A stretch of DNA of 64,000 nucleotides, from assembly GCA_963781585.1 (NCBI GenBank), contig CAWAGQ010000008.1, positions 369,756-433,755 on the forward strand, in the 5' to 3' direction. How positions within the stretch are numbered: position 1 is the stretch's first letter; every line of letters begins with the position of its first letter. Of the stretch, positions 27,757 to 49,950 are shown piece by piece. The DNA comes from an uncultured Gemmatimonadaceae bacterium (GTDB lineage Bacteria; Gemmatimonadota; Gemmatimonadetes; Gemmatimonadales; Gemmatimonadaceae). The notes beneath the pieces are model-generated. The model was given only the letters and a program-made list of their open reading frames with translations, had not been told where the DNA came from and made no database searches. Position numbers and translations under genes: made by a program.

Positions 27757-29916
27757 ATGGCCGTTGATCGGACAAGGATTCCATACCTCCCGGAGCGCAT
27801 CGAAGGCCTCGCCATCGTCGCCACGAACATCGCGTGGAGCTGGAACAGGGACGTCCGGCGTCTCTTCCAACTCATCGACGACCCGCTGTGGCATCTCACT
27901 CGCCACAATCCGATCGCCATTCTCCGCCGGATCGACCCGCAGCGGCTGAACGACTGTGCGCGGGACCCGGTGTTCCTCGAGCTCTACGACCGCGCGATGG
28001 CGGAGCTGGATCTCATCCGCACAACGCACGGCACGTGGATGGAGCGTGAATACCCGGACATCGATCCGGCCAATCCGGTGGCGTACTTCTGTGCCGAGTT
28101 CGGGCTGCACAACTCGGTGCCCATCTATTCCGGAGGGCTGGGTGTCCTGGCCGGCGATCACTGCAAGAGCGCCTCCGATCTGGGTGTCCCGCTGACCGGC
28201 GTGGGACTGTTTTACACCAAGGGGTACTTCGATCAGCAATTACGACTGGACGGCTGGCAGGAAGACTCGGACGAGCAGTTCGACGTGACGAACGCGCCTC
28301 TCGAACGGGTATACGGCGCCGGACGCGAGGCGCACCTCACGAGTGTGCTCACCAGCGGCCGTGAAGTCTTCATCGGCGCCTGGCGGATGCTGGTGGGGCG
28401 CGTGCCGGTGTACCTGCTCGATACCGATCTCGAGCAGAATCACCCTGACGATCGTGAACTCACGTCGAAGCTGTATGCCGGCGGCCCTGAAGTGCGGCTC
28501 AAGCAGGAGTGGATTCTGGGTGTGGGCGGTGTGCGCGTGCTGCGCGCGATGGGCGTCGCGCCGGCGGCCTGGCATGCCAACGAGGGGCATGCGGCGTTCA
28601 TGATGGTGGAGCGCGCGCGCGAACTCGTGGCCTTGGGCGAGACCTTCGAGGGGGCGATGGGGCAGGTGCGGGCACGCTCGATCTTCACCACGCACACACC
28701 GGTTCCGGCGGGACATGACACGTTTTCGGTGGAACAGGTGGAGCAATGCACGGGGGCGGTATGGGAGACGCTGGGCGTGGGTCGCGAGACGTTCTTCGCG
28801 ATCGGCCGGCACCCGGAGCAGGCGCAGGATCAGTTTCACATGACGGTGGCGGCCATCCGGATGTCGAAGTTCGTGAATGGCGTGTCACGGCGGCACGGTG
28901 AGGTCTCACGCCAACTGTGGGCGCCACTCTGGCCGGGCCGTTCGGTGGAAGAGGTCCCCATCGGGTGCATCACCAACGGCGTGCACCTGGCCACCTGGAT
29001 GACGCGGGACATGATGGGCCTGCTTGATGTCCAGTTCGGGGCCGACTGGGGACAGCAGGTTGACGACGCGCAGTTCTGGGAACGGATGCTGGAGCTGGAC
29101 GACGGGCGGCTATGGTCGTTGCGCACAGCGTTGAAGTCGGCGCTCCTGAACTTTGTGCGCGAGGAAGCACGACGTCGCTGGGCACGACACTGGAAGGAGG
29201 CCACCCACGTCGTCGGTGCGGGGACGCTCCTGAATCCGCATGCGCTCACGATCGGGTTTGCGCGACGATTCGCGACGTACAAGCGCGCGGACCTCATTTT
29301 CCGGGACATCGAACGTCTGCGCGCACTGCTTGTGAACCCCGCGCGCCCGGTGCAGATCATCCTTGCCGGGAAAGCGCACCCGGCCGATACGCCGGGGAAA
29401 GAGGTATTGCGCACCGTATACGGGTTCACGCGCGACCCGCGGTTGGAAGGACGGGTGGCTTTTCTCGAGGACTACGAGCTGCATCTGGCGCATCGCCTGG
29501 TGGAGGGTGTGGACCTGTGGCTCAACCTGCCACGGGTGCCATTCGAAGCGAGTGGGACGAGCGGCATGAAGGCGGGACTCAACGGGGTGCCGCAGGTCTC
29601 CACACTCGATGGCTGGTGGCACGAGGGGTACGAAGGACTCAACGGGTGGGCGATCCCGCCGGCGACGTCGCGGTCAACGCCTGACGAGTGGGACGCCGAT
29701 CACCTGTATCGGCTGCTGGAAGAACAGGTGATTCCGCTCTACTATACGCGAGACGAGCGGGATGTCCCGGTGGGGTGGGTGGAGAAGATGAAGCACGCCA
29801 TCCGCGTCTCGGGCCAGCGATTCACGGCCCGTCGCATGCTCCGGGAGTACGTGACGCGGTGTTATGGGCCGGCCATGCGCGGCAATAACATCCCCGATGA
29901 TCCGCCCGGAGGCTGA
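27757..29916 (+). CDS. glgP: Alpha-glucan (glycogen) phosphorylase, GT35
   Basis: AYFCAEFG, YSGGLGVLAGD, HANEGH, GFARRFATYKR, EASGTSGMK (PLP lysine). Confidence 0.96.
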   Translation: MAVDRTRIPYLPERIEGLAIVATNIAWSWNRDVRRLFQLIDDPLWHLTRHNPIAILRRIDPQRLNDCARDPVFLELYDRAMAELDLIRTTHGTWMEREYPDIDPANPVAYFCAEFGLHNSVPIYSGGLGVLAGDHCKSASDLGVPLTGVGLFYTKGYFDQQLRLDGWQEDSDEQFDVTNAPLERVYGAGREAHLTSVLTSGREVFIGAWRMLVGRVPVYLLDTDLEQNHPDDRELTSKLYAGGPEVRLKQEWILGVGGVRVLRAMGVAPAAWHANEGHAAFMMVERARELVALGETFEGAMGQVRARSIFTTHTPVPAGHDTFSVEQVEQCTGAVWETLGVGRETFFAIGRHPEQAQDQFHMTVAAIRMSKFVNGVSRRHGEVSRQLWAPLWPGRSVEEVPIGCITNGVHLATWMTRDMMGLLDVQFGADWGQQVDDAQFWERMLELDDGRLWSLRTALKSALLNFVREEARRRWARHWKEATHVVGAGTLLNPHALTIGFARRFATYKRADLIFRDIERLRALLVNPARPVQIILAGKAHPADTPGKEVLRTVYGFTRDPRLEGRVAFLEDYELHLAHRLVEGVDLWLNLPRVPFEASGTSGMKAGLNGVPQVSTLDGWWHEGYEGLNGWAIPPATSRSTPDEWDADHLYRLLEEQVIPLYYTRDERDVPVGWVEKMKHAIRVSGQRFTARRMLREYVTRCYGPAMRGNNIPDDPPGG

Positions 29917-29956
29917 CCGGCAGGCGCGATGACCGAGGGTGAGGGGGAGACGGGCG

Positions 29957-31576
29957 ATGCCAGGCAAGCGGAAGACTCCGGGGAACACACCGGGAGCGCC
30001 GGAGCAGCCGCGGCGACAGCGGCGGCCTCGGGAAGTCGTGCCGGTGGCGCCGGTGCCGCGTCCCGCACTTCCTGACGACCCGCCGCTGGTGGCACCATCC
30101 GGCAAGCCGGTTACGATCGTCCACCTTGCGGCCGAGCTCGCCCCCTTCGCGCGGACGGGCGGTCTCGGCGAGGCGGTGTCGAGTCTTGCGCACTATCAGG
30201 CCCTGACCGGACTCACCTCCGTCATCGTGATGCCCCTGTACCGGCAGGTTCGGGAGGTGGCGACCGATCTGGTTCCCGTGGGCGAGCCATTCCCGGTGAC
30301 TGTGGGGCCGAGGACCGAGCTGGCCCGGCTGCACGAGTCGCGCGCGCTGCAGTCGAACCCGGCAGAGGGCAAACCGCGCATCCTGTTCATCGAGAACGCG
30401 GAGTACTTCGACCGGGACCACATCTACGGAACGGCGCAGGGGGACTATCCGGACAACCATCGGCGGTTTGCCTTCTTCTGCTTCGCCGCCCTGAATGCGC
30501 TACCCTCGATCGCCAGCATGCCGGTCATTCTCCACGCGCACGACTGGCATGCGGCCCTCGCGCCGGTGTACCTGCGCGTCTTCGACGGTGGCCCGGGACG
30601 CGAGTTCTATCGTAACACGTCTTCGGTGCTGACCGTTCACAACGCGGGCTTTCAGGGACAATTCGCGCCCGACGTGCTCTCGGATCTCGGGCTGCCGTGG
30701 GATCTGTACAATTTTGCGCAGCTGGAGTGGTACGGACGGGTGAACATCCTGAAAGGTGGCCTGGCGTTCGCTGATGCGGTGTCGACGGTGAGCCCCACGC
30801 ATGCGCACGAGTTGCGCACGCCAGCCGGCGGGTTCGGCCTGCACGACGCTTTCATCAGTCTGCGCGAGCGCTTCGTGGGCATCGTCAACGGCATCGATCA
30901 GCGCGAATGGAACCCCGAGACCGATCCCGTCATTACCGCGCGCTACAGCCGGGACGACCTGTCGGGCAAGAAGCGATGCAAGAGTGCGCTACAGCGGATC
31001 TTCGGGCTGCCGCAGCGGTCGCGCGTGCCGATCTTCGGTATGAGCGCCCGGATGGTGTATCAAAAGGGCCTCGACCTGATCCTGGGCAGCCCCCGGTTTC
31101 TGTCGCTCGACGCACAGTTCCTGTTCCTGGGGCAGGGCGAGAAGCGGTACGTGGATACGCTTACCGAGCTGGCGCGCATGGCCCCGGGACGGATCGGCGT
31201 GCAGACGGATTTCACCAGCGTGCAGGAACATCGATTGATGGCCGGTGCCGATGTGATCATCATGCCTTCCCAGTACGAGCCGTGCGGCCTCACCCAGATG
31301 CGGGCGCAGCGCTATGGCGCGCTGCCGGTGGCGCGGCACGTTGGCGGGCTTGCCGACACCATCGAGGACGGAATCACCGGATTCCTGTTCGATGCCTTCA
31401 GCACCAGCGACTTTCTCACGGCATGCGTGCGCGCGATTGACCATTACCAGGATCCCACCCCCTGGCATCACATGCAGCGGGAAGCGATGTCGCGCGACTT
31501 CGGATGGGAGCGATCCGAGCAGAAGTATCTCGAGCTGTACCGCAAAGTGCTGGCTTCGCCGCGTTTTCGCCGGTGA
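29957..31576 (+). CDS. glgA: Glycogen synthase, GT5
   Basis: ELAPFARTGGLG, HAHDWH, TVHN, GIVNGID, QKGLDL, PSQYEPCGLTQM. Confidence 0.95.
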   Translation: MPGKRKTPGNTPGAPEQPRRQRRPREVVPVAPVPRPALPDDPPLVAPSGKPVTIVHLAAELAPFARTGGLGEAVSSLAHYQALTGLTSVIVMPLYRQVREVATDLVPVGEPFPVTVGPRTELARLHESRALQSNPAEGKPRILFIENAEYFDRDHIYGTAQGDYPDNHRRFAFFCFAALNALPSIASMPVILHAHDWHAALAPVYLRVFDGGPGREFYRNTSSVLTVHNAGFQGQFAPDVLSDLGLPWDLYNFAQLEWYGRVNILKGGLAFADAVSTVSPTHAHELRTPAGGFGLHDAFISLRERFVGIVNGIDQREWNPETDPVITARYSRDDLSGKKRCKSALQRIFGLPQRSRVPIFGMSARMVYQKGLDLILGSPRFLSLDAQFLFLGQGEKRYVDTLTELARMAPGRIGVQTDFTSVQEHRLMAGADVIIMPSQYEPCGLTQMRAQRYGALPVARHVGGLADTIEDGITGFLFDAFSTSDFLTACVRAIDHYQDPTPWHHMQREAMSRDFGWERSEQKYLELYRKVLASPRFRR

Positions 31577-31714: not shown

Positions 31715-32857
31715 ATGAAATGGTCGTGGCGAATCGGCCGCGTGGCGGGGATCGTGATCGAAATCCACGTCACGTTTCTCTTCCTTCTGCTGTGGATCGC
31801 ACTCGTCGAGCAGCAGCGCGGTGGGACGGCGGCGTCGATCGCCGGGGCCCTCCTGTTCACGGTGGCGGTGTTCGCGTCCGTCGTGCTGCACGAGTACGGT
31901 CACTCGCTCACCGCCCGCCGTTTCGGCGTCCGGACCCGCAGCATTACGATCCTTCCCATCGGTGGTGTGTCGTCGCTCGAGCGCATTCCGTCCGAGCCGC
32001 GCCAGGAACTCGCCATTGCCCTCGCGGGACCTGCGGTAACCGTGGGAATCGTGGTGGTGTTGTACCTGCTTCTCGTGATCACCGGACAGCCGGTCGCTGT
32101 GAAGGATCTGAGCTTCGGCGGTGGCCAGTTCCTGGCCCGGCTCATGTGGGTGAACATCGTGCTGGCGGTGTTCAACGTCCTCCCGGCATTCCCGATGGAC
32201 GGTGGGCGGGTGCTACGTGCCGCACTGGCGCTGCGGATGGAGTACGCCCGCGCCACCAGAGTGGCCGCCACGATTGGACGCGCATTCGCGGTCCTGTTCG
32301 CCATCGCAGGGTTGTTCAGCAATCCGTTTCTCGTCTTCATTGCGATCTTTGTCTGGATGGGCGCAACTGGTGAGAACTGGAGCGCTCAGCTGCAGTCGGC
32401 GTTGCGCGGCCTTCCCGTGGAGCGCGTGATGATCAGCGACCTTCGCACGCTCGCACCGAACGACACGCTGGGACGTGCGGTGGAGCATCTCCTGGCCGGT
32501 TTCCAACAGGACTTCCCGGTGCTGGATGGAGAACACCTGGTGGGCGTCTTGCCGCGCACCGACCTGATCAAGGCGTTGGCGCAGCGCGGCCCTGATGCGA
32601 TGGTTCACACGGCGATGCGCTCGGATTTCCCGATCGCGCACCCCGGGGAGCCACTGGACGAGGCATTCAGGCGCCTGCAGCAGGCGAAGTGCCACACGAT
32701 GCCCGTGGTGAAGGGCGACGTGCTGCAGGGGGTGCTGACGCTGGACAACGTGGGTGAGTTCTTCATGGTGCAGGGAGCCGCCGGGAATCAGCACGCGCAT
32801 TCAGAGGGTCGGACGGCAGCGGCCGACCGCCCGCATCCGGCTGTCAGTCACCGGTAG
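31715..32857 (+). CDS. Site-2 (M50) protease with CBS pair
   Basis: LHEYGH, ALAGP, FNVLPAFPMDGGR; two C-terminal CBS motifs. Confidence 0.93.
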   Translation: MKWSWRIGRVAGIVIEIHVTFLFLLLWIALVEQQRGGTAASIAGALLFTVAVFASVVLHEYGHSLTARRFGVRTRSITILPIGGVSSLERIPSEPRQELAIALAGPAVTVGIVVVLYLLLVITGQPVAVKDLSFGGGQFLARLMWVNIVLAVFNVLPAFPMDGGRVLRAALALRMEYARATRVAATIGRAFAVLFAIAGLFSNPFLVFIAIFVWMGATGENWSAQLQSALRGLPVERVMISDLRTLAPNDTLGRAVEHLLAGFQQDFPVLDGEHLVGVLPRTDLIKALAQRGPDAMVHTAMRSDFPIAHPGEPLDEAFRRLQQAKCHTMPVVKGDVLQGVLTLDNVGEFFMVQGAAGNQHAHSEGRTAAADRPHPAVSHR

Positions 32858-32944: not shown

Positions 32945-33006
32945 CCGACCTCCGACCTCCGACCTCCGACCTCCGACCTCCGACCTCCGACCTCCGACCT
33001 CCGACC
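32945..33006 (+). repeat. Perfect heptamer tandem repeat (CCGACCT) x8 plus a partial unit
   Basis: Read directly; ends 2 nt before the TTG start at 33009. Confidence 0.97.
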
Positions 33007-33008
33007 CA

Positions 33009-35126
33009 TTGGCATCTCTCGTCATTCACGGCCACTTCTATCAGCCGCCGCGCGAGAATCCGTTTCTCGACGAGGTCGAGGCGGAGCCGTCGGCCGCACC
33101 GTATCACGACTGGAACCAGCGGATCGAGCGTGAATGCTATCGGGCAGTCGTTGCCGCTCGCGTAACGGGGAACAACGGCCGGATCGCGCGCATCGTCAAT
33201 ACGCTCGAATGGATCTCCTTCGACTTCGGCCCGACTCTGCTCGAATGGATGGAACGTGAGGCGAACGACACATACCGCTCGATCCTGGCTGCTGATCACG
33301 CGAGCCGAAGTCGGCTCGGGGGTCACGGCAACGCCATAGCCCAGCCATATCATCACACGATCCTTCCACTGGCCTCACGGCGCGACAAGCAGACCGAGGT
33401 GCGGTGGGGCATAGCAGACTTTCGCCGGCGCTACGGTCGCGACCCCGAGGGCATGTGGCTCCCCGAGACCGCGGTCGACGATGAAACGCTGGACGTCCTC
33501 GCCGCCGAAGGAGTCCGCTTCACCATTCTCGCGCCACACCAGCTGGTGCCAGTGCCACCACTGGGTCGCCCGGGCCGGTACCGTACGTCGGGAGGCCGCA
33601 GTATCGCCCTCTTCACCTACGATGGGTCCCTCTCCCACGGGATCGCCTTCGGGGGACTCCTCCACGACGCCGATGCATGGGTGAGCCGGATGGCCATGGC
33701 CGGGGCGCACCTGGCCATGGAAGGCGGAATGGCAGCAGCCACGGCTGAGGCGTTCGAGAGCCGGCAGGGACTCGGCCCGGAAGAAGGCCCGCAGGACGCG
33801 GCCCCGGCCCCGGAGCTGCTGCTCGCCATGGCAACGGATGGCGAAACGTATGGACATCATCACCGATTCGGCGAAATGGCGTTGGCGCATGCACTGGAGA
33901 AGATGGGTGCCGAGCAGTGGCGGGCCGAGAACTTCGCGTTCTTCCTCGCGCGCTCCCCCGCCACCTATGACGTGGCGATCGTCGCACCAAGCGCCTGGAG
34001 CTGTGTGCACGGTGTGGAGCGGTGGCGATCGAACTGTGGCTGCCGGCTCGACGGCGGGCGCAATCCGAGTCAGGCGTGGCGCACACCGCTGCGACAGGGT
34101 CTGGAGAAGGTCGCCGCCGAAGTGCACGCTGTTTTCGATCAGCAGGGGCGGGCGCTGTTCGGGGATCCGTGGCGAGTGCGTGACGCGTACGGTGCGGTCG
34201 TGGCGGGAGGGACAGACGAGCTTGAACGATTCGCGAAAGAGACCATCCCGCATCCGACTTCCGCGGAGCAGCTCGTGCGGGCGCGGGAACTGCTCGAAAT
34301 GGAGCGCGATGCGCTGCGCATGTTCACTTCGTGTGCCTGGTTCTTCGACGACATCGGAGGATTGGAAGCACGGCAAGTTCTCCGGTACGCGGCGCGCGCG
34401 ATCGACCTGGCGGGAGGGGACCGCGGCCGGCTCGAGGCAATGCTCCTGGACGAGCTCTCGATCGCACGCAGCAATGACGTTGCGATCGGAACCGGCAGCG
34501 ACGTGTACCGCACGGCTCTGCTGCCGGCTGTGCCCGCTCCGGTCCGGATTGCCGCCGCGGCGGTGGCCGGATTGCATGCCGGTGCGCAAGCCCTGGTACG
34601 CACCGGGAACGCCGAAGTGGAAATCGCCGGGGACACCGTTCGTGTGACGGAGTCCCGCACGGGTCGCGGGCACCAGGTCCGCGCGTGGGTCGTGCGGTCC
34701 GCACATACCGAGGTCGTGACCGAGGTGGTCGACGAGAGGGGCGCCCGGTACCGACTATCGCTGGCTGACCTGCCGGAGCGCCCGCGCCACGCCATTCGAT
34801 CCCGGTTGAGGCGGTCCATTCTGCCCGGCTGCCTGACGCCGGGCGAAATCGAACTGCTGCTGGCGGGTGACGTGACGCTGGGCGGATTGGTGCGCGTGGC
34901 CCTGGTTCGGACGGTCAGGCGGCTGGAGCACGATCACGATGGGGACGCGCTGCACCTGGTCAACGCGCTCCTCGATCTGATCGAACAGTCCGAGGGCAAG
35001 TTTCCCTTCGACGCGCAGACGGCCTTCTGGCGTATCTGGCAGGGCGCCAACCGGCAGCGACGCGCGGATCTGCACGAGCTCTTCCTGCGTATTGGGTTCG
35101 TGGACAGCGACGCAGCCGGCGACTGA
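33009..35126 (+). CDS. GH57-family glycoside hydrolase with DUF3536
   Basis: IHGHFYQPPRENP, WNQRIERECY, GMWLPET, ATDGETYGHH, WSCVHGVERW, MFTSCAWFFDD. Confidence 0.92.
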   Translation: MASLVIHGHFYQPPRENPFLDEVEAEPSAAPYHDWNQRIERECYRAVVAARVTGNNGRIARIVNTLEWISFDFGPTLLEWMEREANDTYRSILAADHASRSRLGGHGNAIAQPYHHTILPLASRRDKQTEVRWGIADFRRRYGRDPEGMWLPETAVDDETLDVLAAEGVRFTILAPHQLVPVPPLGRPGRYRTSGGRSIALFTYDGSLSHGIAFGGLLHDADAWVSRMAMAGAHLAMEGGMAAATAEAFESRQGLGPEEGPQDAAPAPELLLAMATDGETYGHHHRFGEMALAHALEKMGAEQWRAENFAFFLARSPATYDVAIVAPSAWSCVHGVERWRSNCGCRLDGGRNPSQAWRTPLRQGLEKVAAEVHAVFDQQGRALFGDPWRVRDAYGAVVAGGTDELERFAKETIPHPTSAEQLVRARELLEMERDALRMFTSCAWFFDDIGGLEARQVLRYAARAIDLAGGDRGRLEAMLLDELSIARSNDVAIGTGSDVYRTALLPAVPAPVRIAAAAVAGLHAGAQALVRTGNAEVEIAGDTVRVTESRTGRGHQVRAWVVRSAHTEVVTEVVDERGARYRLSLADLPERPRHAIRSRLRRSILPGCLTPGEIELLLAGDVTLGGLVRVALVRTVRRLEHDHDGDALHLVNALLDLIEQSEGKFPFDAQTAFWRIWQGANRQRRADLHELFLRIGFVDSDAAGD

Positions 35127-35139
35127 AAGGCGCGAGCGG

Positions 35140-37212
35140 ATGACAGCGATCCGGTTCTGCTTCGGGCTGCACCTGCACCAGCCGGTGGGCAACTTCGACC
35201 ACGTGATCGCGCAGCACGTGCGCGATGTGTACCGGCCTTTCCTCGAGCGAATACGTGTGCATGGGTTCGTGCCGGTGGCGCTGCACATCTCGGGACCACT
35301 GCTGGACTGGTTGGAGAGACGCGATCACCGGTTTCTGGACCTCCTGGGTGATCTGACGGCGGATGGGAAGCTCGAGTGGCTTCTGGCCGGCTACGAGGAG
35401 CCGGTGCTGGCATCGCTGCCGCGCGAAGACCGCGTGGAGCAGATCGCGTGGATGCGCGAGGCGCTTCGTACACGCTTCGGAGCCGCGGCCACCGGACTGT
35501 GGCTCACCGAGCGGGTGTGGGAGCCGGACCTGGCCGCCGACCTGCACGACGCCGGTGTGCGCTTTGCGCTGGTCGACGACCGTCACTTCGTGGTCACCGG
35601 TTTCCGGCGCGACCAGCTGCACGCACCGTACTGGACGGAGCACGGAGGCAAGCGGCTGGCGCTCTTTCCGATCGATGAGCGACTGCGCTATCTGATCCCT
35701 TTCGAAGCGGTGGAGGAAACGGGGAACTACCTGCGCGGGCTGCGAGAGGCTGGTCATCGGTTGGCGGTTCTGGCGGATGACGGGGAAAAATTCGGGGGAT
35801 GGCCTGGAACGAAAGAATGGGTCTACGATCGCGGATGGCTGGATCGGTTCCTCGCGGCGATGCGCGAGCAGGTCTCGAATGGCGACGTGGTTCTGTCGAC
35901 CTTCGCCGAGGCGCTCGCGGCGGTGCCGAGCGGCGGCATCGCGTATCTGCCGACCGCGAGTTATCGCGAGATGGAGACGTGGTCGCTGCCGACGACGCAA
36001 GCGCAACGCCTCACGGCGCTCGAGCAGCAGCTCGGCGCAGAGCGCATGGCCGGGCCGGATGGAGCGCTGGTGCGGGGCGCGCACTGGAAGAACTTTTTCG
36101 TCAAGTATCCGGAAGCGAACCGGATGCACAAGAAGATGCTTGCGCTTTCGGCGCTGTGCCGCGAACGGGGCAATCCTGCCACTGCCCGGCGCGCGATTGG
36201 TCGTGCGCAGTGCAATGATGCGTACTGGCACGGAGTCTTTGGCGGCCTCTACCTGCCCTTTCTCCGGGCGGCCGTGTGGCGGAATCTGGCTGAAGCGGAG
36301 CGCCTCCTGCGGGTCGACGAACAGCTGCGGGCGGAGGAGACCGACATCGACGGCGATGGTCACGTGGAGGTGTGGATCCACTCGGCGCATTTTTCGGCGA
36401 TCGTGAGTCCGTATCGTGGCGGGGCGATCGAGGAGCTGACCCGGTTCTCGGTGGAGCCGGAGGTCGTCATGAGTGCGACGCAACGGACCCGGGAGGTTGC
36501 AGCATCCACCGGCAGTGACGGGCGCGACGACGCGCCCGGAGCGGCAGACGGCTCACCGGCAGGCGCGAATCATGCCGATGTACTCACGCGGCGGCGGGAA
36601 GCGTATCACGTGCTGAGCGAGCACGGGCACGAGGCACCGATGAACACCGAGCCATCCGTGGTGGGGGGTGCAACCGCACCCGACGAATCTCTGGTGGCGG
36701 CGGGTACGCCCAGCATCCACGAGCTGGAGCACGGCTTTCGCCTGCGCGCGTTGCCGGCCGCGGACCTGGACGATCGGGCGATCTTCGTCGAACGCGTGAT
36801 CCCGGGCTCGGTGACGCGGGATCAGTTCGCTGGTGCGCAATATCAACCGGTGGCGTCGGCGGCGAGGATCGCGATGACCTGCCGCCTGCGTCAGTCGGAA
36901 TCCCGTGTGGAGGTGGCGCTGGAAGCCCCGGACGGCCGGCTGCGCAAGACCCTCACCTTTCTGCCGGACGGTCGGGTGCGCGCGGAATTCGAGTGGGACG
37001 GGCGGGTGTTTGCGGAGAGCGATTGCTTCACGGTCGAGCTGTCCCTGGACCGTGCGCTCCCCGTGGCGTGCACGCCGGGCGCCGAGCTGTGGGAGTATCC
37101 GATCGAGACGGTATCCAAATCGGAGAAGGGACTGGATCGGGTGCGGCAGGGTGTCGCGCTGGTGGTGCGGTGGCCGGTGGCGCAGGGGCGGGGCAGCGTA
37201 GACCTGGGGTGA
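35140..37212 (+). CDS. GH57 4-alpha-glucanotransferase/alpha-amylase (DUF1925/DUF1926)
   Basis: HLHQPVGNF, HISGPLLDW, GLWLTERVWEP, ADDGEKFGGWP, AQCNDAYWHGVFGGLYLP. Confidence 0.92.
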   Translation: MTAIRFCFGLHLHQPVGNFDHVIAQHVRDVYRPFLERIRVHGFVPVALHISGPLLDWLERRDHRFLDLLGDLTADGKLEWLLAGYEEPVLASLPREDRVEQIAWMREALRTRFGAAATGLWLTERVWEPDLAADLHDAGVRFALVDDRHFVVTGFRRDQLHAPYWTEHGGKRLALFPIDERLRYLIPFEAVEETGNYLRGLREAGHRLAVLADDGEKFGGWPGTKEWVYDRGWLDRFLAAMREQVSNGDVVLSTFAEALAAVPSGGIAYLPTASYREMETWSLPTTQAQRLTALEQQLGAERMAGPDGALVRGAHWKNFFVKYPEANRMHKKMLALSALCRERGNPATARRAIGRAQCNDAYWHGVFGGLYLPFLRAAVWRNLAEAERLLRVDEQLRAEETDIDGDGHVEVWIHSAHFSAIVSPYRGGAIEELTRFSVEPEVVMSATQRTREVAASTGSDGRDDAPGAADGSPAGANHADVLTRRREAYHVLSEHGHEAPMNTEPSVVGGATAPDESLVAAGTPSIHELEHGFRLRALPAADLDDRAIFVERVIPGSVTRDQFAGAQYQPVASAARIAMTCRLRQSESRVEVALEAPDGRLRKTLTFLPDGRVRAEFEWDGRVFAESDCFTVELSLDRALPVACTPGAELWEYPIETVSKSEKGLDRVRQGVALVVRWPVAQGRGSVDLG

Positions 37213-38018
37213 GACAGAATCTGCAATACCTCCGGAAGTGGATTGCACGCCGGCGCGTGCCCCCTGGGGCACTGGACGTGATTCCCGATGTGGAGAGCCG
37301 GGAACTCGGGAACCGGCGCGATGTCCTGGTCTATCGTCCGAGTTCGTATGATCGAACGGATGGAGCCTATCCGGTCATCTACATGCAGGATGGCCAGAAC
37401 CTGTTCGATCCGGCCACCAGTTTCGCGGGCGAATGGGGAGTGGACGTCGCCCTCGACAAGACACCGCGCAAAGGTCGGCGGGCACTCATTGTCGGGATTC
37501 CCAACACCGGAATCGACCGCGTTCGCGAGTACTCGCCGTTCGTGGACCCGCGACACGGCGGCGGGCTGGGCGACGCCTATCTCGACTTCGTGGTGGGGAC
37601 CGTCAAACCGCTGGTCGACGCCCGGTATCGCACGCTCACGGATGCGTACGGAACCGGGATCGCCGGGTCGTCACTGGGTGGTCTGATCAGTCTCCACGGT
37701 TTCTTCCGGCAGCCGTCGCGCTTCGGATTCGCGGGGGTGCTGAGCCCGGCCCTCTGGTTCGCGGATGGAGCCATCTTCCACGCGGTCGAGGCGGCGCCGT
37801 ATGTTCCCGGGCGCATCTACCTCGACGTGGGCGCCCGGGAGGGCGCCACCTCGGTGCACGATGCGCGCCGGATGCGCGACCTGCTGATCACGAAGGGATA
37901 CCGTCCGGGGAGGACACTGCTCTGGCGCGAGGATCGGACCGGGCTGCATAACGAGGCGGCGTGGGGCCGTCGGTTTCGCAGCGCGCTGCCGTTCCTGCTC
38001 AGCGGCGACATCACCTGA
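37209..38018 (+). CDS. Alpha/beta-hydrolase (putative esterase) 1
   Basis: YPVIYMQDGQNLFD, GSSLGG nucleophile elbow, HNEAAW; GTGA overlap with the GH57 stop. Confidence 0.88.
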   Translation: MRQNLQYLRKWIARRRVPPGALDVIPDVESRELGNRRDVLVYRPSSYDRTDGAYPVIYMQDGQNLFDPATSFAGEWGVDVALDKTPRKGRRALIVGIPNTGIDRVREYSPFVDPRHGGGLGDAYLDFVVGTVKPLVDARYRTLTDAYGTGIAGSSLGGLISLHGFFRQPSRFGFAGVLSPALWFADGAIFHAVEAAPYVPGRIYLDVGAREGATSVHDARRMRDLLITKGYRPGRTLLWREDRTGLHNEAAWGRRFRSALPFLLSGDIT

Positions 38019-38019
38019 C

Positions 38020-38754
38020 ATGGGAACACGGCTCCATGGGCAGCATCATGCCTGGTACAGTCCGGTGGTCGGGCGCACGATGCAGGTGCGTTGGTTCGGG
38101 CACGCGGGCGCCCGGGTGATCGCCTTCCCCACGACCCTGGGGAACCACAACGAGTGGCCGGATCGATCGATGCCCGACGTGCTGGGCGAGCAGATCGAAA
38201 AGGGGTGGATTCAGCTCTGGTGCGTGGACCACAATCACGATGCCAGCTGGTATGACAGGACGGCCCATCCGGGACACCGCGCCTGGCTTCACCTGCAGTA
38301 CGATCGCTATCTGTACGAAGAGCTGCTGCCGTTTACCGCGTACATCAACGCAACCCCATTCGTGATCGCCACCGGTGCCAGTTTCGGCGCGTACCACGCC
38401 ATGACATTCGGCTTGCGCCATCCGCACCTGGTACACCGCGTCATCGGGATGAGCGGCTTCTACGACATCAAGGAGATGACAGAGGGATACTCCGACGAGA
38501 ATGTGTATGCCTGCAATCCTTTCGACTTCATGCAGCACGAACACGATCCGGAACGGCTTGACGCCTTCCGGCGGCAGGACATCATCATCGCAACCGGGCG
38601 GGGAGATCCGCACTACGCGGAGAACGCCGACTTCTCGGCGGTGCTTTGGAACCAGGGGGTTGGCAACGCCCTCCGCGTGTGGGACGGCTGGTGCCACGAC
38701 TGGCCGTACTGGGAGCGGATGATCGTGACATACATCGCGGGTGTTCGGCCGTAG
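38020..38754 (+). CDS. Alpha/beta-hydrolase (putative esterase) 2
   Basis: FGHAG..VIAFPT, GASFGAYH, MSGFYD, HDWPYW; starts 1 nt after esterase 1. Confidence 0.88.
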   Translation: MGTRLHGQHHAWYSPVVGRTMQVRWFGHAGARVIAFPTTLGNHNEWPDRSMPDVLGEQIEKGWIQLWCVDHNHDASWYDRTAHPGHRAWLHLQYDRYLYEELLPFTAYINATPFVIATGASFGAYHAMTFGLRHPHLVHRVIGMSGFYDIKEMTEGYSDENVYACNPFDFMQHEHDPERLDAFRRQDIIIATGRGDPHYAENADFSAVLWNQGVGNALRVWDGWCHDWPYWERMIVTYIAGVRP

Positions 38755-38760
38755 GTCGTG

Positions 38761-38816
38761 GCGAGAGGCGAGAGTTCAAAGCCCAGAGGCCAAGGGCCAC
38801 AGTCCAGAGACCACAG
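38761..38816 (+). repeat. Degenerate heptamer array (8 units)
   Basis: gcgagag gcgagag ttcaaag cccagag gccaagg gccacag tccagag accacag. Confidence 0.7.
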
Positions 38817-38858
38817 ATTTTTCACTTCCAACGCACGGTTCACGGAGCCTGACGCCAC

Positions 38859-39824
38859 ATGTCCAAACGCATCGGCCTCTTCGTGGGCAGAGAGTGGTCC
38901 TGGCCGCCCGCCTTCATCGAGGAAGTGGAGAAGCGCGACCAGGGGGTGACCGCCGAATACGCGAAGATCGGCGGCGAGCATCACGACACGCCGGCGCCGT
39001 ACGACGTGCTCATCGACCGGATCTCTCACGAGGTGCCGATGTATCGCTCGTACCTGAAGAAGGCGGTGCTCGACGGTCGGATGGTGGTGAACAACCCCTT
39101 CATGTGGACGGCCGACGACAAGTTCTTCGGCGCGGCGCTGATCCGCCGCCTCGGCGTGGTGTCGCCGAAGACCGTGCTCCTGCCGAACAAGGATTACGTC
39201 GAGGGTATCGTTCCGCACGAGAGTCTGCGAAACCTCCGATATCCGCTCGACTGGAAGGAAATCGTCGCCTGGGTGGGGCTGCCGTGCGTGCTGAAGGATG
39301 CCCACGGCGGGGGGTGGAAGGAGGTGCACGTCTGCCGCTCGCTCGATGAGTTGATCAACCGGTACGATCAGTCCGGCCGTCTGACGATGATCGTGCAGGA
39401 ATTCATCGAATGGGATCAGTTCGTTCGCTGCCTGTGCATCGGCCGGCAGGGGGTACTGCCCATGAAGTACGACCCCGGTTCGCGGAAGTACCTGGTCGAG
39501 CACGAGCACCTCACGCCGGAGCTGGGTGCCCGGGTCGTGAACGATTCGCTGACCATCGTCCGGGCGTTAGGCTACGACATGAACTCGATCGAATGGGCCA
39601 TTCGCGATGGGATTCCCTACGCGATCGATTTCATGAACCCGGCGCCGGACATGGACGTGTATTCGCTGACGCCGATGTACTTCGAGTGGGCGGTGGAGAA
39701 GATGGCGACGATGGCGATTCGCCTGGCGAAGACCCCCCATCCGCAGGTTGCCGAGCTGCACTGGAGCCGGATGTTCAGCCAGGACGCACGTCACGGCGCG
39801 GTGCACTCGCCGGGCGCGCCATGA
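38859..39824 (+). CDS. ATP-grasp amide ligase (RimK-like fold)
   Basis: VLIDRISH, NNPFMWTADDKF, PKTVLLP, LKDAHGGGW, IVQEFI, AIDFMNPAPD. Confidence 0.85.
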   Translation: MSKRIGLFVGREWSWPPAFIEEVEKRDQGVTAEYAKIGGEHHDTPAPYDVLIDRISHEVPMYRSYLKKAVLDGRMVVNNPFMWTADDKFFGAALIRRLGVVSPKTVLLPNKDYVEGIVPHESLRNLRYPLDWKEIVAWVGLPCVLKDAHGGGWKEVHVCRSLDELINRYDQSGRLTMIVQEFIEWDQFVRCLCIGRQGVLPMKYDPGSRKYLVEHEHLTPELGARVVNDSLTIVRALGYDMNSIEWAIRDGIPYAIDFMNPAPDMDVYSLTPMYFEWAVEKMATMAIRLAKTPHPQVAELHWSRMFSQDARHGAVHSPGAP

Positions 39825-39900
39825 TCGGGCGTGGACGAGCCGCGCCGATGCGCGGCCGGCGTGCGGACGTGCCGGCGTGCGGAGCGAATCGGGTCGGAGT

Positions 39901-41283
39901 GTGGATCGCCCCGCCCCTCTCCTGGTGCCCGCCGTGCTGCACGACGCCGTAGCGCGGTACCACGACCTGCTGACGCCGGAACTGGCGGAAGCATCGGCCG
40001 AGCACCTCGACCATGCGCTCCGGAGGCATGGGCTGGTGTTCGGCGACCGGGCGTTGTGCACCGTGCTTCGGCCGCGCCTGCTGACCGGCGATGCCTATCG
40101 GCGCCTCCAGGGGCGCATCGTGCCGCTGCTGCGGGCGTTTCGCGCCGCCCATGAGCGCGCGATGGCCGACCGCGAGTTCCGGGCGCAATTCCGGCTTGGC
40201 GAATGGGAGGAGTCACTCCTCGCCGCGGACCCCAGGTTCGATGCGCCAAGCCCGACGTCGCGGCTGGATTTCTTCTACGCGCCCGATACGGATGTCCTGG
40301 GGCTGACGGAATACAATGCCGAGACGCCGGCTGGTGCGGCCTATAGCGACGCGCTCGCCGAGGTGTTCCTCGATCTGCCGGCGATGCGCGCTTTCGCCGC
40401 CGAATACGAGATCCTGCCAGTGCCCTGTCGGCAGGGTGTGGTCGGCGCATTGCTGGACGCCTACTATCAGTTCGCCGGCTCGCGCGACCGTCCGCGGATC
40501 GCGATCCTCGATTGGCCCGACGTGCCCACGGTGACGGAGTTCGAGTTGTACGCCGAGCACTTCCTGGCCCTTGGAATCGAGTGCCTGATCGGCGACCCGC
40601 GCCAGGCGGATTATCGACAAGGACAATTGTGGATCGGTGGGACCGCGGTCACCCTGATCTACAAGCGCGTGCTGATCAGCGAGCTGGTGACCCGGTGCGG
40701 GCTCGACTCGCCAGTGGTGCGGGCGGTCCGGGACGGCGCGGTGTGCATGGTGGACGGGTTCCGGTGCAAGATCCTGCACAAGAAAGCAAGCCTGGCGGTG
40801 CTGAGCGACGAACGAAACGCGCGTCTGTTCGGAGGCGCCGAGCGGCGGGCGATTGCGGACTGCATTCCCTGGACCCGGGTGGTCGAGGAGCGCCACACGA
40901 CGTACCGGGATGAGTCGGTGGACCTGGTGCCGTTCATCATTCGTGAGCGGGAACGCTTCGTGCTCAAGCCTAACGATGACTACGGCGGGCGGGGAATCAC
41001 CCTGGGCTGGCGCGTGGACGGGAGCCAATGGGAGGCCGCGGTGCGGAATGCGCTGGCCGAACCGTTCATCGTGCAGGAGCAGGTGGCCGTACCATCGGAA
41101 CCGTATCCGGCGTGGGTCGACGGCCGGCTGCAGATTCTGGAACGCCAGTACGACACCGCGCCGTTCATCACCAACGGCGCGTACATGGAGGGCATGCTGG
41201 CACGGCTGTCGACCGACCCGTTGCTCAACGTGACCGCCGGTGGCGGAAGCACGGTACCCATGTTTCTGGTGGAGAAGCGATGA
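39901..41283 (+). CDS. Circularly permuted ATP-grasp ligase (GSP-synthetase-like); start approximate
   Basis: [53 protein letters not shown]. Confidence 0.78.
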
Positions 41284-41293
41284 GGGCATCCGC

Positions 41294-42502
41294 ATGAAAC
41301 GCCCAAGCCTGACGATCGGGGTCGAAGAGGAATATCAGATCATCGATCCCCGCACCCGGGAGCTGCAGTCGTACATCACGCAGATTCTCGAGGCCGATCA
41401 CCTGATCATGGGACAGGTGAAGCCCGAGCTGCATCAGTCGATCGTGGAAGTGGGAACCAAGGTCTGTCACACGCCGGGCGACGTGCGCGACCAGCTGGTC
41501 GCGCTGCGGCGCGGTGTCATGGAACTGGCGGCCAGGAACGGGCTCAAGATCGCAGCTGCCGGAACGCACCCGTTCTCCCACTGGGCCGAGCAGGAGATCA
41601 CGCCGCTGGAACGGTACATCGGGACGCGTGAGGCGATGGCCCAGCTCGCCCAGCAACTGCTGATCTTCGGCACCCACGTCCACATCGGCATCGAGGATCG
41701 CGATTTCCTCATCGACTGCGCGAACGTCTCACGCTACGTGCTCCCTCATATCCTCTGCCTGTCCACCAGCTCGCCCTTCTGGATCGGACGCAACACCGGC
41801 CTCAAGTCGTACCGGAGCGCCATCTTCCGCGCGTTCCCGCGCACCGGCATCCCGCGATTCCTCGCGTCGTGGAACGACTACCAGTCATACGTGCGTACGC
41901 TCGTCGCCACCGGTTGCGTCCCCGACGGGTCGAAGATCTGGTGGGACGTGCGCCCGCATCACCAGTTCCCCACCCTCGAATTCCGGGTCTGCGACGTCTG
42001 CACCCGCGTCGAGGAAGCAGTTTGCATCGCCGCCATCCTGCAGGCCCTGGTCTTCAAGCTGTGGAAGATGCGCCGGGACAACGTCACCTTCCGCATCTAT
42101 CCCGCCGAGCTGATCGAAGAGAACAAGTGGCGCGCCGTGCGCTACGGTCTCGATGGCAAGCTGATCGACTTCGGCCGGGAAACGGAACTGCCGGCGCCGG
42201 CGCTGATTCGCGAGTTCCTCGACTGGTTTCTGGGCGACGTGGTCGATGAGCTGGGGAGCCGGCGGGAGGTGGAATACGCCCAGCACATCCTGGACCACGG
42301 CTCCAGCGCTGATCGCCAACTGGCTACCTTCCGTGAGACGGGGAGTCTGCAGGCGGTCGTGGACCGGCTCATGACCGAGACGGAGGAAGGAGTGCACCCT
42401 CCGGACAAGCCGGCGGGCGCCGTGAAGGACACACACTATCGCGCGGTTTCACAGTCCAGACCGGAAGCGCTGGCCCCGGAGATCGGGCCGCCGCCGAGCT
42501 GA
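41294..42502 (+). CDS. Carboxylate-amine ligase, YbdK/GCS2 family
   Basis: [57 protein letters not shown]. Confidence 0.92.
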
Positions 42503-42516
42503 CGCACACTCAGTTC

Positions 42517-43290
42517 ATGCGACCGATTATCGGAGTCACCACCCAGACCCTCCACGCGATCGACGGCATTCCACCCGGGCTGCCGGCGTCGGTGGTGATG
42601 AATCAGCGATACTATGACGCGGTAGCCGACGCCGGCGGAGCGCCCATCCTCATTCCACTGCTCGACGATGCCACTGAGGCGTTGCGCGGTGTGTACGACG
42701 TGTGCGACGGGATTGTCATCCCCGGGGGTGTGGACATGCACCCGGCCTGCTTCGGGGAAGCGCCGCACGAGCACCTCGGTCGCACGGACGAAGTCAGGGA
42801 TCGCGTGGAGCTGCAGCTCACGCGGTGGGCCATCGACGACGGGAAACCGCTGCTGGGACTGTGTCGGGGACTGCAGGTGATCAATGTGGCGCTCGGAGGC
42901 ACGCTCTATCAGGATCTGGGAACAGAGCGCCCAGGCTCCATTCGCCACGACTACTTCCCGACCCACGGCTACGCGCGCGACTACCTGGCGCATGAGGTCG
43001 CGCTGCACGCGGGGACGCGGCTGTTCGATGCGATGGGTGGTGATCGAATCGCGGTGAACAGCATGCACCACCAGGGCATCAAGGACCTTTCTCCCACGCT
43101 CGTCACGGCGGCCACGGCGCCCGACGGACTGGTGGAGGGGGTGGAGGGCCCGGGCGATCAGTACCTGGTGGGCGTGCAGTGGCACCCCGAGGTGTTCGAG
43201 TCCGCCGACGTACACACACGGCGCCTGTTCGAGAGCTTCCTGGCAGCGGCCCGCAACTTTCGCGATCGGAGCGTCGCACGAACCGCGTAG
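42517..43290 (+). CDS. Peptidase C26 / PuuD-like gamma-glutamyl hydrolase
   Basis: RPIIGVT, PGGVD, LLGLCRGLQ (catalytic Cys), VNSMHHQ, GVQWHPE. Confidence 0.92.
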   Translation: MRPIIGVTTQTLHAIDGIPPGLPASVVMNQRYYDAVADAGGAPILIPLLDDATEALRGVYDVCDGIVIPGGVDMHPACFGEAPHEHLGRTDEVRDRVELQLTRWAIDDGKPLLGLCRGLQVINVALGGTLYQDLGTERPGSIRHDYFPTHGYARDYLAHEVALHAGTRLFDAMGGDRIAVNSMHHQGIKDLSPTLVTAATAPDGLVEGVEGPGDQYLVGVQWHPEVFESADVHTRRLFESFLAAARNFRDRSVARTA

Positions 43291-47094: not shown

Positions 47095-48496
47095 ATGCAT
47101 GTTCCTTCCGCAGCACCTGTGCCGGAGGCGCTCTCGCGCCGCCAGTTGCTCAAAGGTGCGCTCGCCGTGTCGGCTGCCGCGGTCCTGCCAGCCGTGGCGA
47201 GGGTCGCGGGCGTCTCCCTGGGCGCTGACGGGATCGGAGCTCCGTGGTTCGAACCTGGTCGACACGGCGCTCCGGGCAGAACACTGGATCGCGCGGTTCG
47301 CACAGCGGAGCGAAGGCGGAACAGCGTGGCCGTGGAATCCGGCAGACGCCGCCGGCATCCAGACGAATCTCTACACCGGCATGCCGGGCGTCGTGCTGTT
47401 CTATCTTGAGCTGCACCATGCCACCGGCGACAACCAGGCGCTGGCTCAGGCGGTTGCGGGCGCGAAATGGCTCGCCGCCACGCTGCCCGAAAACGCCAAA
47501 CTCGGTGACGGCGGGTTGTACACGGGGATGGCCGGCATGGCCTACACGCTCGAGATGGTCCATCGCGCCAGTGGTGAGGCACGGCATCGCGAAGCATCGA
47601 TGCGTGCGCTGACCCTGCTGAAGCAGGCGGCGCGGCCGGTTGGCGACGGCGTGGAGTGGTCCGAGAGTACGGACATCATCTCCGGCAGCGCGGGAATCGG
47701 GCTGTTCCTGCTGTGGGCGGAGGCCCGGATGGGCGACGCAGAGTCGCACGATCTCGCCCTGAGAGCGGGGAGACGTCTCATCGAGCGGGGCGTGCCCGAG
47801 CAAGGTGGCATGAAATGGCTCGTCTCACCGCAGATTCCGCGAAATTATCCCAACTTCTCGCATGGCACGGCCGGCGTGTCGTATTTCCTGGCGACGCTCC
47901 ATCACGCCACCGGTGACCGGTCGTTTCTCGATGCCGCCGCGGCCGGCGCCCGCTACCTCGACGCCATCTCGGTGCCGACGCCTAACGATGGCCGGATGGT
48001 CTTCCACAGCGAGCCGGGAAACGAGCAGCTGTTCTACCTCAGCTGGTGCCATGGCCCGGCCGGCACCGCGCGGCTCTATCGCCGCCTGGCGCAGGCGACC
48101 GCCGATCCGGCCTACGAGGCCCGAGTGGGTCAGCTCGCCCAGGCGATCGTCGACATGCACGTTCCCGAGCGCTCGCCTGGATTCTGGAACAACATCAGCC
48201 AGTGCTGCGGGAACTGCGGCGTGGTGGAATTCTTCATCGACCTCCACCGGCACGGCGGCGAACAACGCCACCGGGAATTCGCCGAACGCGTGACCGCCGA
48301 TACCCTCCTCCGCGGCTCGAAGGACGACGACGGAACGAAGTGGACGCAAGCAGAAAACCGCGTCCAGCCCGACGTGCTCATCGCACAGACCGGGCTGATG
48401 CAGGGGGCGGCCGGGGTCGGGATCGCCATGCTGCATCTGGATGGCGTGGGGGCCAACCGCGAGCCATTCGTGGTGCTCCCGGATAACCCGTTTTGA
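47095..48496 (+). CDS. LanC-like protein with Tat signal; one apparent frameshift near 47200-47255
   Basis: Frame 47095 gives SRRQLLKGALAVSAAAVLP; frame 47099 gives LYTGMPGV, FSHGTAG, SWCHGPAG, QCCGNCG, GLMQGAAG. Confidence 0.78.
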
Positions 48497-49950
48497 GCCT
48501 GACGAACGACCGGCTGCAGCTCTCCCCCAGCGTGATGCAGGCGCTGGGGTATCGCGTCGTCGATATCATCGTCGAGCACCTCACGTCGCTCCCGCAGACC
48601 CGGGTTGCCGTGCAACGTACGCGGGCCGACCTGGAACACGCCCTCGGCAGCGGGTTTCCCGATGATCCCACTCCGCCAGGCGACGTGCTGTCTCTGGTCG
48701 AACGCGAAGTCCTGACCGCGATGATGCACGTGGATCATCCACGCTTCTACGCGTTCGTGCCCGGTCCCGGGAATTTCGTGGGTGCCATGGCCGATGCGCT
48801 GGCGTCGGGATTCAATGTCTTCGCCGGACACTGGCTGGCGGCCTCGGGGGCCGGCGCCGTGGAAGTGCAGGCGATCGAGTTCCTGCGACAGGAATGCGGC
48901 CTGCCCGAGGGTGCAGGGGGCCTGTTCGTGAGCGGCGGCTCAATGGCGAATCTGAGCGCCATTGCCACCGCACGGCGCGTACTGCTCGGCGACCCCGATC
49001 CTCGGGCGGTCGTGTACTACAGCGACCAGACGCACAACTCTCTCGCCAAGGCGCTCCGCGTGCTGGGCTTCACCGATTCGCAGCAGTGCATGCTGCCGGC
49101 CGATGAATCGCAGCGGCTCGATCCGCGTGTGCTGGGCGAGGCGGTCGCTGCGGACTGGTCGGCCGGCCGGAGGCCGTTCTGCGTGGTCGCGAACGCGGGT
49201 ACCACGAACACCGGCGCGGTGGACCCGCTGGGCGCTATCGCCGACCTGTGTGCCACGGAGAAGCTCTGGCTCCATGTGGACGGCGCCTACGGCGCGGCCG
49301 CCATGCTCAGCGCCCGTGGCCGGCGCGCCCTGACCGGGATCGAACGCGCCGATTCAATCACGCTCGACCCGCACAAATGGCTGTTCCAGCCGTTCGAGAT
49401 CGGGTGCCTGCTGGTGCGCGACGCGCGGCATCTCCGCGCCACGTTTGCAGTCCATCCCGAGGATCAGGCTTCGTACCTGGGCGACGTGGAGCGGATCGCC
49501 GAGCGGGAGGTCGTCTTCTACGAGAGCGGGGTGCAGCTCACGCGGTCGTTTCGCGCCCTCAAGCTGTGGATGTCGCTACGTGTATTCGGAGTGCGGGCAT
49601 TTCGCGAGGCAGTCGAGCGTGGGATCGCACTGGCCGAGGAAGCGGAGCGACTGCTCCGAGACGACCCGCGATGGGAGGTCGTGACCCCCGCCCAGCTGGC
49701 GGTGGTGACGTTTGCCCCGCGCCTCGAAGGGTTCACGCGGGATGAGCAGCTTGCGGTCATTCAGCGCGTCGTCGAGCGACTCGTCGCGGACGGGTACGCG
49801 ATGGTGACGTCCACCCTGGCTCGCGGGCGCACCGTGCTGCGTTTCTGCCTGATCAATCCTGCGGCCAACATCGAGGACGTGCGAAGCACGCTCGAGCGTC
49901 TGGCGGGTTTCGTGGCCCTCGAAGCCGCGCCCCGCCGGTCAGCTGGCTGA
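48493..49950 (+). CDS. Group II PLP-dependent amino-acid decarboxylase
   Basis: HPRFYAFVP, FVSGGSMANL, AGTTNTGAVD, LHVDGAYG, DSITLDPHKW; TTGA overlap with the LanC-like stop. Confidence 0.92.
   Translation: MSLTNDRLQLSPSVMQALGYRVVDIIVEHLTSLPQTRVAVQRTRADLEHALGSGFPDDPTPPGDVLSLVEREVLTAMMHVDHPRFYAFVPGPGNFVGAMADALASGFNVFAGHWLAASGAGAVEVQAIEFLRQECGLPEGAGGLFVSGGSMANLSAIATARRVLLGDPDPRAVVYYSDQTHNSLAKALRVLGFTDSQQCMLPADESQRLDPRVLGEAVAADWSAGRRPFCVVANAGTTNTGAVDPLGAIADLCATEKLWLHVDGAYGAAAMLSARGRRALTGIERADSITLDPHKWLFQPFEIGCLLVRDARHLRATFAVHPEDQASYLGDVERIAEREVVFYESGVQLTRSFRALKLWMSLRVFGVRAFREAVERGIALAEEAERLLRDDPRWEVVTPAQLAVVTFAPRLEGFTRDEQLAVIQRVVERLVADGYAMVTSTLARGRTVLRFCLINPAANIEDVRSTLERLAGFVALEAAPRRSAG

Follow-up and report, generated by a model that had tools for sequence, protein, structure and literature searches.

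Why should the glycogen genes of a soil-type bacterium run straight on, along one strand, into a set of amide-bond ligases, esterases and a gamma-glutamyl hydrolase? The question is raised by the 64,000-nucleotide (nt) stretch of DNA analysed here (the window), in which eleven genes, from the alpha-glucan phosphorylase gene glgP (starting at 27757) to a C26 hydrolase gene (ending at 43290), form an unbroken row on the plus strand according to the list of open reading frames (ORFs) and family scans. The last six, encoding two esterases, three ligases and the C26 protein, are referred to as the module. The module is of a previously predicted kind, the CP_ATPgrasp_2 (PF14403) neighbourhood class, and brings one directly testable new lead: the occurrence of esterase 1 across genomes follows that of the ligases, and among longer homologues those nearest to it are fusions with the debranching enzyme GlgX or with the GH57 family seen in the window. 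Judged from enzyme families and gene neighbourhoods, the product may be a free gamma-glutamyl peptide for storage or stress that is regulated together with glycogen; we give this reading a probability of roughly 0.4.

The gene row and its enzymes

The features of the row are:

27757..29916, plus strand: glgP, alpha-glucan phosphorylase (TIGR02094, E=1e-234)
29939..31576, plus strand: glgA, glycogen synthase of family GT5 (TIGR02095, over cut-off; PF08323)
31715..32857, plus strand: M50 site-2 peptidase with CBS domains (PF02163, PF00571)
32945..33006: perfect 7-bp tandem repeat, 8.9 copies, ending two bases short of the first GH57 gene and its TTG start
33009..35126, plus strand: GH57 + DUF3536 glycoside hydrolase, TTG start (PF03065, PF12055; nucleophile and acid/base motifs)
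35140..37212, plus strand: GH57 protein of the alpha-amylase/4-alpha-glucanotransferase type (PF03065, PF09094, PF09095; catalytic motifs)
37209..38018, plus strand: esterase 1 (PF00756; Ser154 and His247 motifs)
38020..38754, plus strand: esterase 2 (PF00756; S121, D196, H226)
38859..39824, plus strand: classical (RimK-like) ATP-grasp ligase (TIGR00768, E=1.5e-8, below cut-off)
39934..41283, plus strand: circularly permuted ATP-grasp ligase with the GspS/eukaryotic glutathione-synthetase fold (profile and fold matches)
41294..42502, plus strand: GCS2/YbdK carboxylate-amine ligase (NF010039 and TIGR02050, over cut-off)
42517..43290, plus strand: C26 gamma-glutamyl hydrolase/class I amidotransferase fold (PF07722; Cys and His-Pro-Glu motifs)

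The gene order, the shared direction, the 4-nt GTGA overlap between the second GH57 gene and esterase 1 and the 1-nt gap between the two esterases had been described in the original prediction and are borne out by the ORF list and family scans. The prediction also spoke of short gaps; of the seven junctions that join the first GH57 gene through to the C26 gene, this is true of five, but 104 and 109 nt precede the classical and permuted ATP-grasp genes. Its gene list, right in the genes that it named, left out the M50 peptidase with CBS domains, which is encoded after glgA and ahead of the first GH57 gene. Active-site motifs, sought with patterns chosen from general knowledge of the families, were found in all eight enzymes checked (both GH57 proteins, both esterases, the three ligases and the C26 protein). 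Promoter and terminator scans gave matches at chance level.

All three ligase families make amide bonds via acyl-phosphates, and C26 enzymes cleave gamma-glutamyl amides or glutamine. The GCS2 ligase exceeds the cut-offs of NF010039 (515.7 against 371) and TIGR02050 (288.8 against 176.4), matches YbdK (1R8G, E=5e-46) and carries the Glu, His and Arg motifs for metal and ATP binding. The C26 protein has its Cys-His-Glu triad and matches PF07722 (E=2e-59) and PuuD (6VTV, E=7e-30), at a score under the PuuD equivalog cut-off (120 against 266). Both ATP-grasp proteins lie below the Pfam cut-offs (RimK, E=0.003; CP_ATPgrasp_2, E=0.0035). In the classical one the ATP-grasp residues are conserved across 61 homologues, and its profile matches D-Ala-D-Ala ligase and biotin carboxylases. 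The permuted ligase reaches 16.8 bits against the PF14403 gathering threshold of 32; precomputed tables assign this family to some of its close homologues. A profile of 80 permuted-ligase sequences matches 3N6X, YgiC/YjfC and GspS, and the structural model (predicted local distance difference test score, pLDDT, 95.8) resembles eukaryotic glutathione synthetases at template modelling (TM) scores of ~0.67-0.70 and 11-14% identity. A start at 39901 is possible for this gene; the 449-amino acid (aa) copy P0001 favours 39934. In esterase 2, S121, D196 and H226 are each shared by 90% or more of 61 homologues and the profile matches CE1-type esterases, while the nearest solved relatives of esterase 1 are siderophore esterases and CE1 carbohydrate esterases.

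A make-and-break pathway for a glutamate-containing peptide, as first proposed for this locus, agrees with these families and with the strong conservation of the module described below. What is known of the ligase and C26 families suggests a small gamma-glutamyl peptide with built-in recycling. The last six genes would thus build and recycle a small free gamma-glutamyl oligopeptide: the GCS2 ligase would couple the gamma-carboxyl of glutamate to an amine, the permuted and RimK-like ligases would each attach one more residue using ATP and an acyl-phosphate, and the C26 enzyme would split the gamma-glutamyl bond or release ammonia from glutamine. Esterase 2 might trim or transfer the product. 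Esterase 1 is predicted to act on ester groups of alpha-glucans or maltodextrins, and in taking these off would form the meeting point of both pathways; the position beside glycogen genes would reflect one storage or stress programme co-inherited in Gemmatimonadales.

Neighbourhoods combining a permuted ATP-grasp protein with GCS2, alpha/beta-hydrolases and an amidohydrolase were reportedly described in 2009 by Iyer, Abhiman, Burroughs and Aravind, with a prediction of small-peptide synthesis. Some of them may also have been shown there with a glucanotransferase, in which case the glucan link was partly anticipated. The window has all four of these components; it differs in that its permuted ligase falls under the PF14403 cut-off, glycogen genes are adjacent and its esterase belongs to a GlgX/GH57-fused clade. 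An M20 peptidase, another feature ascribed to the class, is missing from the 13 proteins scanned, which run from glgP up to the gene at 45500. The E. coli Puu pathway (PuuD) and GspS also offer gamma-glutamylation followed by C26 hydrolysis and a GspS-like fold, but the window module has no amine-catabolic oxidase or dehydrogenase and joins three ligase types. Cyanophycin (CphA/CphB) and N-acetylglutaminylglutamine amide (NAGGN), a non-ribosomal peptide store and osmolyte, are comparable in that ATP-grasp ligases synthesise them and a linked hydrolase breaks them down. In the Bacteroidota loci L170 and L176 the module lies between glgC-glgA-glgB and an adjoining cyanophycin synthetase, which makes a storage island, but the six module genes include no Mur-ligase, AsnO or GNAT. 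The literature searched, with most subscription papers outside it, yielded no experimental study of the module and no report of its product.

Distribution of the module and linkage to glucan genes

The survey covered Gemmatimonadota (301 genomes, the unpublished G008 being one row on which no claim depends), Bacteroidota (251 genomes centred on a Rubricoccaceae genome) and Chloroflexota (251 genomes centred on a Promineifilaceae genome), the latter two phylum names being assigned from record titles and gene content; chromosomes of Firmicutes, Acidobacteriota and Myxococcota lay outside it. The permuted ligase was matched in 96 of the Gemmatimonadota genomes, 78 strongly, and the same ligase types recur in the other two samples, where the classical ATP-grasp ligase was matched in 73 and 54 genomes, respectively. 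The module thus occurs in about a quarter of the sampled genomes (78/301, 73/251 and 54/251, the latter two counted by the ATP-grasp gene). From Gemmatimonadota 95 loci were fetched (two duplicates), 38 of which are at least 17.5 kb and are called long; 40 of the 73 Bacteroidota and 20 of the 54 Chloroflexota loci were fetched, long contigs being preferred.

All 38 long Gemmatimonadota loci have the classical ATP-grasp and the permuted ligase, and most have GCS2 (34), C26 (33), esterase 2 (32) and esterase 1 (24), in an order conserved well above chance. Esterase 2 is the constant partner of an ATP-grasp gene and forms two-gene units with it in Peptoclostridium and Pararhizobium replicons, without glucan genes; a plasmid search with the classical ATP-grasp protein gave no match. 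Bacteroidota loci usually carry, in sequence, esterase 2, ATP-grasp, GCS2, class I amidotransferase and a 393-aa protein. The latter (L166:12713-13891 and 21 related loci) has no Pfam match and a weak permuted ATP-grasp alignment (E=0.0005), and is probably, by its sequence, an unannotated ligase subfamily. A further ATP-grasp family joins the module, as pairs, in 16 of the 95 loci. Separately, an IQCH-like ATP-grasp protein with a PGM1 C-terminal domain stands upstream of esterase 2 in L068, L070, L086 and L104:5598-7124, all glucan-linked.

The expectation that the module would stay linked to glgP, glgA and GH57 genes held for about half of the Gemmatimonadota loci, with no clear enrichment in Bacteroidota. 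Glucan genes lay within ~10 kb in 18 of the 38 long loci, against none of 14 controls and 2.8% of own-genome 20-kb windows. Five of the glucan queries came from positive loci, a choice that favours module loci, and the boundaries of the first 20 loci were set asymmetrically, like those of the window. Elsewhere they were found at 6 of 37 Bacteroidota loci (controls 2 of 20) and 5 of 16 Chloroflexota loci (controls 0 of 6), four of these five apparently from one lineage. Glucan-free module loci numbered 20/38, 31/37 and 11/16 in the three phyla, and a universal glucan linkage was rejected. In Bacteroidota, read by eye and with three weak ATP-grasp hits dropped, 3 of 70 genomes have glgA no more than 10 kb away from the ATP-grasp gene (~0.7 expected).

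On a 48-row ligase tree the linkage label was clustered, changing 6 times against a shuffled mean of 15.8, which fits one ancestral linkage with losses; for the same reason the counts were not accepted as independent events. At least four different arrangements of module and glucan genes occur, and three loci labelled as unlinked have a DUF3536 gene 8-24 kb off, beyond the fetched stretch. The proposed tie to glycogen is real, though partial, and consistent with a single ancestral linkage in Gemmatimonadota: the linkage is strong within a single order, with no more than anecdotal cases outside it.

The GH57 protein with DUF3536 was found in 59 of the 80 module genomes searched. In 31 genomes the distance from its gene to the permuted ligase gene is at most 25 kb (at most 12 kb in 28); in 4 it is far off on the same contig and in 24 on another contig, and a near case occurs in at least one genome of 11 of the 20 genera. 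By presence alone, DUF3536 was found in 58 of 78 module genomes against 71 of 223 module-negative ones. Among the 21 of 80 module genomes lacking a DUF3536 match, 12 gave no true GlgA and 20 had GH13 matches; one 99% complete draft (G013) gave no GlgA, GH13 or GH57 match, its only matches being a phosphorylase and an esterase 1 of a more distant kind. As these are draft assemblies, missing genes count as not found rather than absent.

In one locus, L157, the ligase and glucan genes are interleaved on one strand, in the order ATP-grasp, permuted ligase, amidotransferase, GH77, GH13, esterase 2 and glgA (cut by the locus end). In three Bacteroidota loci (L145:2519-6226, L150 and L157:15085-18729) the module is followed immediately downstream by a gene for a GH13-like protein of ~1,200 aa. 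Its only Pfam match is weak (E=3e-9), and by BLAST at E<=1e-3 it matches none of the other GH13 queries.

Esterase 1 and the nature of the product

Longer homologues of esterase 1 numbered 249, and architectures were taken from the 120 listed. Among these, 30 are GlgX fusions, at 48-56% identity and, where names are given, from Chloroflexaceae, Roseiflexaceae or Oscillochloris. Two (P0394 and P0398) are GH57 + DUF3536 fusions whose GH57 + DUF3536 part is 42-45% identical to the first GH57 protein of the window. GH13 fusions (6), CBM20 carriers (9), MGH1-like or six-hairpin glycosidases (4), a GH35 protein (1) and double esterases (3) were also listed; the remaining 65 have other architectures, many bearing a secretion tail. 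Both catalytic motifs are kept in 27 of the 32 GlgX and GH57 fusions. A quick tree of 132 rows, taking in 17 GlgX fusions and about one third of the rows of other architecture, placed the window esterase 1 in a 63-row clade with the GlgX and GH57 fusions (Shimodaira-Hasegawa-like approximate likelihood ratio, SH-aLRT, support 97), while twelve other module esterases grouped with CBM20 and neopullulanase fusions (support 92-93). The GlgX-esterase fusions, of ~990 aa in Chloroflexales, fall among P0391-P0422 and P0441 and occur at L199, L202 and L203. The esterase is C-terminal in most of them and N-terminal in P0392, which suggests more than one fusion event. In L170:4831-5973 and L176:4715-5833 the module esterase has an N-terminal extension of ~120 aa that resembles a starch-binding domain by eye, with no Pfam CBM match.

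A strong permuted-ligase match was present in 61 of the 64 Gemmatimonadota genomes with esterase 1. The corresponding figure in Chloroflexota, for the ATP-grasp ligase, was 24 of 25, a count inflated by kinship, with the genes unlinked there. For the close esterase 1 type it was 8 of 8 genomes (3 with GlgX fusions), compared with 54 of 251 overall. Glucan genes of the query set were found in 4 of 20 Chloroflexota esterase 1 regions, 3 of these being the fusions themselves, and one further stand-alone gene has a GH31 neighbour. Esterase 1 was not found at E<=1e-40 in 17 of 78 module genomes, including 9 of 9 of genus g46, which keep the GH57 gene adjacent all the same. A distant relative is the last gene of a Vibrio maltodextrin operon.

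Two points put the free gamma-glutamyl peptide first: except in one order, the module is mostly found on its own, and a shared stress regulon has a precedent. In a Mycobacterium smegmatis sigF mutant a carboxylate-amine ligase gene, treS and glgX were all down-regulated, according to the regulon tables of PMC4694148, and this co-decrease is a precedent for co-regulation. The persistence of the module genes together, the clustered label on the ligase tree, the storage island of L170 and L176 and the glucan-free two-gene units also speak for it. Several observations pull the other way. Of the module's neighbours in the window, glgA and the first GH57 gene are kept in 13 and 12 of the 38 long loci and the others in 0-3. 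That esterase 1 is a regular module member and elsewhere a GlgX or GH57 fusion partner is poorly explained by a free peptide, and both esterases look more like enzymes that split esters than like peptidases, which points to a possible ester bond in the product. Finally, in the Anaerolineales-type loci L122, L123, L266 and L267 a subtilase with a CBM48/AMPK glycogen-binding domain and apparently intact catalytic residues is encoded directly before esterase 2, in the slot otherwise held by esterase 1, which a free product leaves unexplained.

The subtilase (C-terminal CBM48/AMPK domain; L122:6513-8153, L123:6579-8240, L266, L267 and L269) is a candidate glycogen-targeted protease. It was found in 5 of 53 genomes, and two copies have no CBM.

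A second explanation, somewhat less likely than the first, is that a short non-ribosomal glutamyl peptide is joined by an ester bond to hydroxyl groups of glycogen or malto-oligosaccharides, a decorated storage glucan that would be found in Gemmatimonadota, Chloroflexota and Bacteroidota alike. Esterase 2 as a transacylase, or an ATP-grasp ligase directly, would attach the peptide; esterase 1 would strip the substituent ahead of mobilisation by GlgX, GH57 and GlgP, and the C26 enzyme would recycle the peptide. The glucan would then either hold carbon and nitrogen in one store or be a protected form. It is a close second because it alone covers esterase 1 both as module member and as GlgX/GH57 fusion partner. 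The glucan-active fusions among the 120 listed relatives (GlgX, GH57, GH13 and CBM20), the clade that the window esterase 1 shares with the largely motif-intact GlgX and GH57 fusions, the ATP-grasp gene in all eight Chloroflexota genomes with the close type, the position of the subtilase, the interleaved genes of L157 and the Vibrio operon all speak for such an ester.

Weighing against the ester are the lack of clear glucan enrichment outside Gemmatimonadota, the module genomes without esterase 1 (17/78) or DUF3536 (21/80), the draft G013 with no GH13 or GH57 match, DUF3536 in 71 of 223 module-negative genomes, and the rarity of the subtilase. Where relatives of esterase 1 stand beside glucan genes with no ligases found nearby (G606, Vibrio), their role may be simple deacylation. 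CBM48-esterase fusions are, moreover, known from xylan esterases, which also tells against a glucan ester. Ester substituents are carried by mycobacterial methylglucose lipopolysaccharides and succinylated periplasmic glucans, and antigen-85 proteins are PF00756 transacylases, but those glucans carry simple acyl groups. In the literature searched, no bacterial glycogen was reported to bear a peptide ester, and the terms 'esterase', 'acylat', 'DUF3536' and 'succinyl' are absent from the first 300,000 of the 445,374 characters of a 2024 review of prokaryotic alpha-glucan enzymes (PMC11046441).

The esterase 1 fusions open a concrete and cheap test of the glucan-peptide link on glycogen itself. 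If the ester exists, a bacterial storage polymer would be covalently modified in a new way that links nitrogen and carbon reserves. If glycogen carries no peptide, an abundant peptide metabolite would still be left to explain in soil and freshwater bacteria, as would an esterase domain on GlgX that lacks annotation.

It is improbable that the product is a glutathione-like thiol, with GCS2 forming gamma-Glu-Cys, the permuted ligase adding a third residue, the esterases hydrolysing S-acyl adducts in the manner of S-formylglutathione hydrolases, and the glucan genes mere neighbours. The GCS2 ligase is a homologue of YbdK, which work cited in PMC13674229 (on thiohistidine dipeptides, unrelated to the module) reports as a gamma-glutamyl:cysteine ligase. 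The fold of the permuted ligase matches those of glutathione and homoglutathione synthetases, and esterase 2 weakly matches S-formylglutathione hydrolase (E=0.11). But identity to glutathione synthetases is just 11-14%, the window adds a RimK-like third ligase, two esterases and a C26 enzyme, a fourth and fifth ligase are often present too, no glutathione reductase or transferase family occurs among the recurrent neighbours scanned, and the GlgX and GH57 fusions go unexplained.

Protein tagging, in which the ligases would add RimK- or Pup-like glutamyl or peptide tags, possibly on glycogen enzymes, for the hydrolases to remove, is the least probable of all: a RimK-like ligase is present, GCS2-fold ligases include pupylation enzymes (PMC2588565) and M50, M17, M29 and S8 peptidases adjoin the module, but the module holds no conserved small carrier or target gene (ORFs of at least 90 aa), and alpha-E and transglutaminase, the partners in a CP_ATPgrasp_1 tagging system according to PMC3597751, are not among the recurrent neighbours scanned.

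Source genome and other neighbours

The named close homologues of the window proteins are from Gemmatimonadaceae. The whole cluster also occurs on a second contig, C5, at 85-97% protein identity. C5 and the window's contig, C8, are collinear over ~357 kb at 88% nucleotide identity in a bin with 7.2% contamination, so a true duplication was rejected and the C5 copy is most likely a co-binned relative. The contig pairs C5/C8, C2/C6 and C11/C17 of this genome (G000) are 88-91% identical over 62-357 kb, which indicates that the bin mixes two related organisms and makes its copy numbers unreliable. A convincing glgC was not found in the whole genome (best match 22% identity), though glgA is present; glgC may be missing from the assembly, or the glgA synthase may use another sugar nucleotide.

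The M50 peptidase was rejected as a module member, being found in 1 of the 38 long related loci, and is a variable passenger. Further downstream in the window (47099-49950) lies a gene with a twin-arginine-like leader and LanC-like relatives, followed by a likely pyridoxal phosphate-dependent decarboxylase gene; LanC-like and IlvA-like genes recur near the module in three other loci.

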